Shown here in pieces: positions 31,408-32,142 of a DNA stretch of 64,000 nucleotides. Within the stretch, counting starts at the first letter, position 1; each line of letters begins with the position of its first letter. The DNA is from Eledone cirrhosa. Its lineage: Eukaryota. The notes below the pieces were generated by a model. That model did not search any database, was not told the DNA's origin, and saw only the letters and a list, made by a program, of their open reading frames with translations. The position numbers were made by a program, and so were the translations under genes. Where the stretch lies: assembly GCA_964016885.1 (NCBI GenBank), contig OZ024745.1, positions 310,001 to 374,000 of the forward strand, written 5' to 3'.

Positions 31408-31441
<34 letters not shown>

Positions 31442-31689
31442 ATACATTAACGGAGCCATAGACCCTCGCCATTCCCTGTAAATAATGTGCTCAAAGGAGA
31501 AGAAATCCTGGGCACTTTAAAATACAATATGTTGAAAAGGTAACACACTAGAGAGAGATACAGTGCGCCATCAATAAAACAGGGAAAAACTACCAGTGTA
31601 TGGAATCTATAACCTATGAAAGGCAGAATATAGACATGATAATTAAAAATATAAATTAAAGCGTAAATAAATACCTGTATAACTATATA

Positions 31690-31771
31690 ACACACGTACA
31701 AATCCAAAGTGATCTGTTTCGTCATTAAGTTGTTGAGATAAGTGAAATAACCCAGGTTCATCAGCGTGTGT
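31690..31771 (-). ncRNA. Type I hammerhead ribozyme motif (left arm copy)
   Basis: ACACACG-CUGAUGA-...-C-GAAA-CAGAUC-ACUUUG-GAUUUG-UA-CGUGUGU; stem II poorly paired in this copy. Confidence 0.6.
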
Positions 31772-31866
31772 AAGGCTATACATTTCAGACAACACTAAGA
31801 GAATTTTTAAAGCGACCGTCCAACGCTTTAAAAATTCTCTTAGCATTGTCTGAAATGTATAGCCTT

Positions 31867-31948
31867 ACACACGCTGATGAACCTGGGTTTTTTCATTTCC
31901 GTCAACAACTTACTGGCGAAACAGATCACTTTGGATTTGTACGTGTGT
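31867..31948 (+). ncRNA. Type I hammerhead ribozyme motif (right arm copy)
   Basis: Stem I acacacg/cgtgtgt (7 bp, extended after an internal loop by tgtatagc/gttataca), core ctgatga 31874-31880 and gaaa 31918-31921, stem III cagatc/gatttg, predicted cleavage after GUA at 31941; stem II weak with A.C closing. Confidence 0.7.
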
Positions 31949-32142
31949 TATATAGTTATACAGGTATTTATACACTGGTGGTTTTTCCCTGTTTTATTGA
32001 TGGCGCACTGTATCTCTCTCTAGTGTGTTACCTTTTCAACATATTGTATTTTAAAGTGCCCAGGATTTCCTCTCCTTTGAGCACATTATTTACAGGGAAC
32101 GGCGAGAGTCTATGGCTCCGTTAATGTATCGTGATATATATG

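Follow-up and report, generated by a model that had tools for sequence, protein, structure and literature searches.

The window, the whole 64,000-nucleotide stretch of Eledone cirrhosa contig OZ024745.1 that was analysed, contains at 31437-32134 a palindrome whose arms, when aligned, match at 298 positions and mismatch at 13, with a single gap of 67 nt. The 700-bp fold-back reported in the preliminary description is thus real; a second inverted-repeat search returned it as 192 nt at 96% plus 148 nt at 94%. The gap is a deletion in the right arm, between 31969 and 31970. Both arms are 5′-truncated monomers of a repeat whose copies terminate at two fixed TA sites, S (short) and L (long), and both have their 3′ end at the L start site. 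The left arm (31437-31824, minus strand) spans about monomer positions 156-543 and the right arm (31824-32134, plus strand) about positions 166-543. They share one base, 31824, and there is no unique loop at the centre: the original bounds of the right arm stand, whereas the left arm reaches 31824 and the 9 nt taken for a loop are more element. Each arm closes with an 88-nt tail. The left one runs from the S site to the L site at 31437-31524 (minus strand); the right one, at 32047-32134 (plus strand), starts at the S start site and contains the S-site TTGAGCAC motif. Both ends of the palindrome adjoin the TA repeats noted from the start, which constitute the target microsatellite: (TA)14 at 31409-31437 on the left and TA/(TATG)n at 32135-32190 on the right. 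Two chance frames (115-116 aa) within the palindrome matched no Pfam family, in agreement with its being non-coding.

Other repeats lie nearby. A second palindrome at 30628-30839 has 106-nt arms (88%) and no loop; its relatives in 13 fetched loci are often inverted, at differing centres, and it is therefore probably another fold-back retroelement family. The TA-flanked repeat at 30836-31104, also present in L351 (in tandem), L171, L048 and L062, is possibly another non-autonomous element. Two endonuclease/RT frames (698 and 384 aa) and a fragment of 186 aa, at 32951-36285 (plus strand) and 27805-28365 (minus strand), belong to what we take to be RTE-type LINEs. A 16.5-kb array of a 48-nt unit (95% matches) occupies 42086-58560.

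Each arm of the 31437-32134 palindrome carries a type I hammerhead motif that faces outward from the centre, at 31690-31771 in the left arm (minus strand; C3 at 31764) and 31867-31948 in the right (plus strand; C3 at 31874). The core CUGANGA, GAAA, the UH site and stems I and III are present on both arms, and the features originally listed for them (CUGAUGA, GAAA, GUA, a 7-bp stem I with a distal extension) were all recovered. Stem III, given as 6 bp, has 7 bp when A15.1-U16.1 is counted. Cleavage is predicted after 31941 on the plus strand, as first expected, and after 31697 on the minus strand. Among 130 distinct copies the core positions are 94-100% conserved, and this conservation spans the subfamilies. 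Position 10.1 is A in 128 of the 130, and position 11.1 is C in 84 and U in 46; the G10.1-C11.1 pair, which PMC4209133 calls highly conserved, is absent. The A10.1-C11.1 mismatch of the right arm is the majority sequence of subfamily A, and the base of stem II in the left arm is damaged by a rare G-to-A change. RNAfold predicts a 7-bp stem II in subfamily B and none in either window arm; a constrained-fold energy obtained for subfamily B was set aside as unreliable. The Rfam hammerhead search that had been proposed as a check found no match at E ≤ 1 over 6 kb or at E ≤ 10 over 31845-31970 (126 nt); hairpin miRNA models alone appeared, below threshold. In the predicted fold of a read-through transcript, 76 of the 81 hammerhead bases pair with the other arm, which argues against the suggested dsRNA hairpin containing a working ribozyme. 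Because no stem II is predicted, G10.1-C11.1 is missing and the hammerhead bases pair with the other arm, cleavage by the window copy is doubtful. The initial caution about activity therefore stands, although 'weak' understates the state of stem II, in which RNAfold closes no 10.1-11.1 pair on either arm.

Subfamily-marking substitutions fall at 1 of 38 core or core-proximal positions. The periphery of the hammerhead has them at 14 of 44 (p = 5e-4), and the remaining positions at 67 of 488 (p = 0.046). So few changes at the key positions point to selection on the source lineage. In 30 chosen copies 91% of the cells in the hammerhead pairing were paired. Compensatory change was slight: a two-sided change was seen in 3 of 18 pairs, a value as high in 46 of 500 shuffles. 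The likely role of the hammerhead in the source lineage is to cut multimeric transcripts; in the subfamily of the window copy it is likely to be weak.

Analysis of the flanking sequence identified the repeating unit as a non-coding, head-to-tail repeated monomer of 541-543 nt. It is this monomer, and not the palindrome as had been assumed, that constitutes the element; the fold-back centre differs in every copy. Monomers occur with periods of 543 and 541 nt in arrays of four or more units, and the whole monomer has diverged into subfamilies. Subfamily B has a period of 541 nt, is 98-99% uniform among its top matches and forms arrays of four units. Hammerheads in consecutive tandem units were found at L012/L021, in the arrays L122-L123 and at L173, and two hammerheads on the same strand in 2 of the 66 loci of the census described below. 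Where a copy extends beyond L, its sequence leads into the next monomer, whose hammerhead lies about 215 nt further on, and no ORF intervenes. No ORF of a Penelope-like element (PLE) was found inside the monomer arrays or between the members of two junction pairs 2.7 and 3.3 kb apart. Units are 98.9-99.8% alike within an array, whereas those of two arrays are about 97% alike; a single copying event per array, from a circular or a linear multimeric template, would have this result. The circular fold of the monomer gave -130 kcal/mol against -112 ± 6 for 20 crude shuffles, and -123 against -107 ± 5 in a second case; this stability was kept out of the evidence for circles.

A search of the 3.0-Gb genome with one arm yielded 3015 first-look candidates. 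Counted genome-wide with exact patterns, there were 784 junctions between tandem units, 1126 3′ halves of the hammerhead, and 1294 L-type and 780 S-type ends that run into TA; the reversed control gave 0 for each. The palindrome thus represents a ~540-base hammerhead repeat that is present in TA microsatellites in well over a thousand copies. These counts and the TA-abutting ends bear out the original proposal of a non-autonomous hammerhead retroelement, Penelope- or retrozyme-like, that targets (TA)n and exists in many copies. A second organism (organism B, run X5), of which four contigs were compared, also has parts of the monomer, an opposite-strand joint among them. None of the data sets listed as containing the sequence is from RNA, which is evidence neither for nor against expression. 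A composite repeat at L171, L147/L400 and L188/L401 combines monomer positions 197-541 and 1-115 with a different upstream region that holds CACGTG and TTTGGCGCC boxes. L101 contains, at 674-2006 and 7218-9001, two further hammerhead repeat families: an inverted repeat of 552 nt whose arms each carry a hammerhead, and a tandem of some 490-510 nt.

Insertions were classified in a census of contig C1 that took, for each of four patterns, the first 30 matches by position. The resulting 120 loci merged to 66, and the census covers exact-motif copies on one contig arm. It comprised 70 insertions, 48 of them head-to-head, 20 in one orientation and 2 complex, and 98 of 101 L or S ends adjoined TA; fold-backs and (TA)n flanks thus recur, as anticipated. 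A hammerhead on both arms is rare: just 4 of the 66 loci have one on each. Among the 48 head-to-head insertions we counted 34 L+S, 3 L+L and 0 S+S, with one end unclassified in the other 11. The L+S combination, which places the tail at one end only, accordingly makes up 34 of the 37 that could be classified; independent choice of ends would give about half (p = 5e-8 for the excess). The distance between S and L is 88 nt in 58 of 61 monomer copies. The 3′ ends are fixed and the 5′ ends ragged, and in many insertions the arms barely overlap or the second arm has sequence missing from the first. A seeming concentration of 5′ ends close to the cleavage site was rejected as an artefact of subfamily alignment breaks and TA flanks; there is no pile-up. 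Target-site duplications are unreadable within (TA)n. Partial tandems, variable 5′ truncation and an inverted 5′ copy, all seen here, form the Penelope-like insertion pattern, for which PMC8557442 and PMC3846280 describe these same features together with a one-sided tail. In vitro, two internal RT start sites define the tail of a Poseidon element, whose RNA must extend past the start sites and for which hammerhead cleavage is dispensable (PMC11167929).

The window copy has the rare L+L form, with a tail at both ends and one hammerhead per strand. It is not itself tandem, having no second hammerhead on the same strand and no sequence after L. Lacking sequence after L and with one hammerhead per strand, it is likely a dead end, unable to seed new copies, and in itself an ordinary genomic residue.

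The genome is rich in PLEs. The monomer has no ORF with an RT plus a GIY-YIG domain at the C-terminus; such ORFs are found in two families, H (L351) and D (L432). We assign families to the Hydra clade on RW[KR], DKT and CxCx5C motifs, not on a tree. RWK, DKT and CxCX5C mark that clade, and the same paper lists it as inserting in (TA)n (PMC8557442). Family H (L351:2249-4603; L321-L358) has a 785-codon open frame, reached via a neighbouring frame, with RWK, DKT and CxCX5C present. Its two TA end sites are 113 nt apart, and 6 of the 7 head-to-head copies with both ends seen, from 8 examined, are L+S. Family D (L432:1349-3475; L403-L451) has one intact 708-aa ORF among 20 loci and likewise two TA end sites. 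Its tail measures 88-89 nt in 14 of 15 cases, and all 7 head-to-head copies with both ends seen were scored L+S by a crude classifier. With 48,503 first-look candidates and top matches about 99% alike, family H is very young; it has tandem full-length copies and a hammerhead with a very long stem II. The hammerhead of family D has the variant core CAGAAGA. Neptune-like families in this genome also end in (TA)n, and one of them, in the 3′ UTR of L061, L072 and L108, shows the U3-A8 hammerhead core variant given in PMC4209133.

The monomer and the Hydra-clade families share a start-site motif. TATTTnnCTCC...YGAGCA follows each start site of family H and the L site of the monomer, and the monomer S site retains the TATTT start and TTGAGCAC. 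Under a relaxed definition the motif had 236 matches in the 2.9 Mb of fetched loci, in 18 sequence groups. Nine were monomer L junctions, 2 monomer tail and 5 Hydra start sites (L090 among them, which is family D); the rest comprised 1 other hammerhead monomer, 1 without assignment and 1 that is probably a chance match. A tight pattern, designed from the monomer and Hydra family E together, matched the genome 718 times and the control 0 times. In a sample of 30 of these matches, 21 lie just before a Hydra ORF (20 about 45 nt upstream of the family D ORF, 1 in family E), 3 are monomer and 6 have no ORF behind them. When 60-nt start-site windows were compared pairwise with the monomer, the score was reached by 24 of 500 shuffles for D, 4 of 500 for E and 4 of 500 for H, and by 32 of 500 for a longer Neptune control window; the pairwise similarity of the start-site windows is weak, only modestly above shuffles. 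Extended homology to the monomer was absent from 90 GIY-YIG loci, if one leaves aside a single insertion of 66 nt of monomer sequence and some AT-rich matches (≤ 50 nt), from 30 family-H loci, apart from the known insertion in L321, and from 20 family-D loci. The question raised at the outset, whether any copy adjoins a PLE RT/GIY-YIG ORF, found no positive answer in these loci, among which there is no autonomous element with homologous terminal repeats. From the shared motif and end geometry, the monomer is likely mobilised by the Hydra clade, and the strongest candidate for the partner is family D. Another tandem hammerhead monomer, at L366:1900-2560, has the same start-site motif, ends in TA and is joined head-to-head to an arm of the monomer family.

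These data are probably best explained by a head-to-head, 5′-truncated insertion of a non-autonomous PLE (a non-LTR retrozyme), likely copied into (TA)n by a Hydra-clade RT/GIY-YIG protein acting in trans. The observed basis of this reading is the monomer length, the tandem arrays, the TA-anchored 3′ ends 88 nt apart, the (TA)n flanks, the S+L pairing and the motif shared with Hydra elements. A tandem source locus would give rise to a longer-than-unit or circular RNA. The RT/GIY-YIG protein, probably as a dimer, would bind the motif after each start site and nick both strands of (TA)n. Each target 3′ end could then prime a cDNA, in most cases with one start at S and the other at L. The two cDNAs would stop early, and the joining of their ends would leave a palindrome.

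More tentatively, and with the odds against it, we can imagine a stricter version in which a ribozyme circle of 540 nt parasitises a Hydra-clade RT by presenting no more than a short bipartite motif, twice and 88 nt apart, to an asymmetric RT dimer that holds one site on each of two RNA units and primes on both (TA)n strands. If true, this circle/dimer rule would explain the one-sided tail and head-to-head inversions of PLEs generally and would identify both enzyme and cis signal of an animal retrozyme.

The same element and enzyme could also generate the inverted arm by self-priming, that is by fold-back copying of the first strand, as PMC3846280 proposes for bdelloid Penelope. Six of 47 loci have no non-CpG difference between their arms, and the arms of L136 are identical over 409 nt when the nearest other copy differs by 0.7%. 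However, the two arms have different end sites, S for one and L for its partner, and where arms do not overlap, or the second holds sequence absent from the first, two-strand priming fits better. Priming on both strands is also favoured by the window itself, whose left arm has four linked stem-II alleles of L029, L046 and L058 that are missing from the right arm, and by L366 and L385, in which another hammerhead element, itself ending in TA, supplies the second arm. For all of these arm differences later gene conversion or target deletion could serve as an explanation as well. The two loci came from a chimera screen of 28 hand-picked loci, where they look like two different elements head-to-head; L362, L367, L371 and L383 were ambiguous. 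A two-template test found at least three linked shared alleles in 10 of 47 loci, a count with no null model behind it. L180 was discarded as a two-template case because it is an alignment artefact, L049 is probably another, and a nearest-neighbour count of 46/88 was set aside as biased. Identical arms in young copies show that the two arms often share one source. Taken together, we regard fold-back copying as unlikely and keep two-strand priming as the preferred origin of the second arm.

It is also improbable that the copies are mere pLTR stumps of an autonomous PLE that escaped our searches, with no independent non-autonomous element behind them. What PLEs usually leave behind are truncated and inverted pieces of their pLTRs (PMC8557442, PMC4209133), and since the best candidates alone were scored genome-wide a rare full-length parent could have escaped. 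Against this stand the 784 exact tandem junctions, the ORF-free passage from L into the next hammerhead, the two junction pairs about 3 kb apart with no PLE ORF between them, and the division of the whole monomer into subfamilies, one of them 98-99% uniform. Equally hard to sustain is mobilisation of the same element by a Neptune-type or other non-Hydra PLE. Several abundant Neptune-like families have RT and GIY-YIG and hammerhead-like motifs, some ending in (TA)n, and in L362 a monomer arm is fused to a hammerhead fragment whose family does not look like Hydra. But the motif scan of all fetched loci gave no match assigned to a Neptune start site, the Neptune end that was tested scored at background (471 of 500 shuffles as high), and the tail length of the monomer matches that of Hydra family D. 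A fold-back or MITE-type DNA transposon or an assembly artefact would account for long inverted arms and TA flanks, and in contigs of runs X1-X4 no listed piece bridges the centre (flanks were skipped as repeats), but either is very improbable given arms that differ at 13 positions and by the 67-nt gap, centres that vary per copy, ragged 5′ and fixed 3′ ends, direct tandems and opposite-strand monomer joints in contigs of three public runs.

The retrozyme-like element inserted by a Hydra-clade enzyme, our preferred reading, bears on a dependence that has so far been proposed mainly from co-occurrence and pLTR similarity (PMC7229834; bioRxiv 10.64898/2026.07.22.740005). Animal non-LTR retrozymes are tandem, non-coding monomers with type I hammerheads, with PLEs as their proposed mobilisers (same sources), and for 21 of 57 Xenopus families, or their TE matches, homology to the pLTR of an autonomous PLE is reported (bioRxiv 10.64898/2026.07.22.740005). 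The origin of PLE inverted insertions with a one-sided tail is still open (PMC8557442, PMC11167929). The family offers a countable rule (one S and one L end), a candidate RT-binding motif and intact candidate enzymes in the same genome. The partner, the cis signal and two-strand priming are therefore testable in the existing in vitro assay. The class of element is already known; the clade-level partner and the start-site rule are new details. The literature, as far as we covered it, gave no description of a Hydra-clade retrozyme partner, of the start-site motif or of an S+L count.

In L1 twin priming both target strands prime cDNA and a head-to-head inversion results; L1 uses its poly(A) end and a variable internal site. 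The element described here, in contrast, uses two fixed sites, and its arms can have sequence in common. With the non-LTR retrozymes of Cervera & de la Pena (2020, PMC7229834) and Li, Clavereau & Pollet (2026), the element shares the non-coding tandem monomer with one type I hammerhead per unit, a GC content of 38-41%, dispersed monomers and short arrays, and co-occurrence with PLEs; its 541-543 nt lie inside the reported 51-972 nt. Unlike in those elements, head-to-head insertions make up most of the sample here, G10.1-C11.1 is missing from the hammerhead, whose stem III is long and non-palindromic, and the link to the partner is a short start-site motif and tail geometry, not pLTR homology. 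The non-autonomous Chlamys elements, e.g. MRC1, are likewise non-coding PLE derivatives with head-to-tail multicopy insertions, but they generally share 3′-end sequence with an autonomous family and most Chlamys elements are without hammerheads (PMC8557442). In Poseidon PAc of Anolis two internal RT start sites 3′ of the hammerhead set the tail, as they seem to do here; PAc is autonomous, belongs to another clade, and its starts are described as non-homologous to the cut DNA, whereas the starts here begin with target-matching TA (Frangieh et al., 2024, PMC11167929). Hydra-clade PLEs have in common with the element (TA)n insertion, a hammerhead upstream of the 3′ ends and tandem or inverted insertions (Craig et al., 2021, PMC8557442), although tails here measure 88-113 nt against the 30-40 bp that this paper gives for PLEs generally. 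Unlike the Hydra-clade PLEs, the monomer has no ORF and no extended homology to any Hydra family examined, yet with those of its own genome it shares two TA-anchored ends, L+S pairing and the start-site motif.
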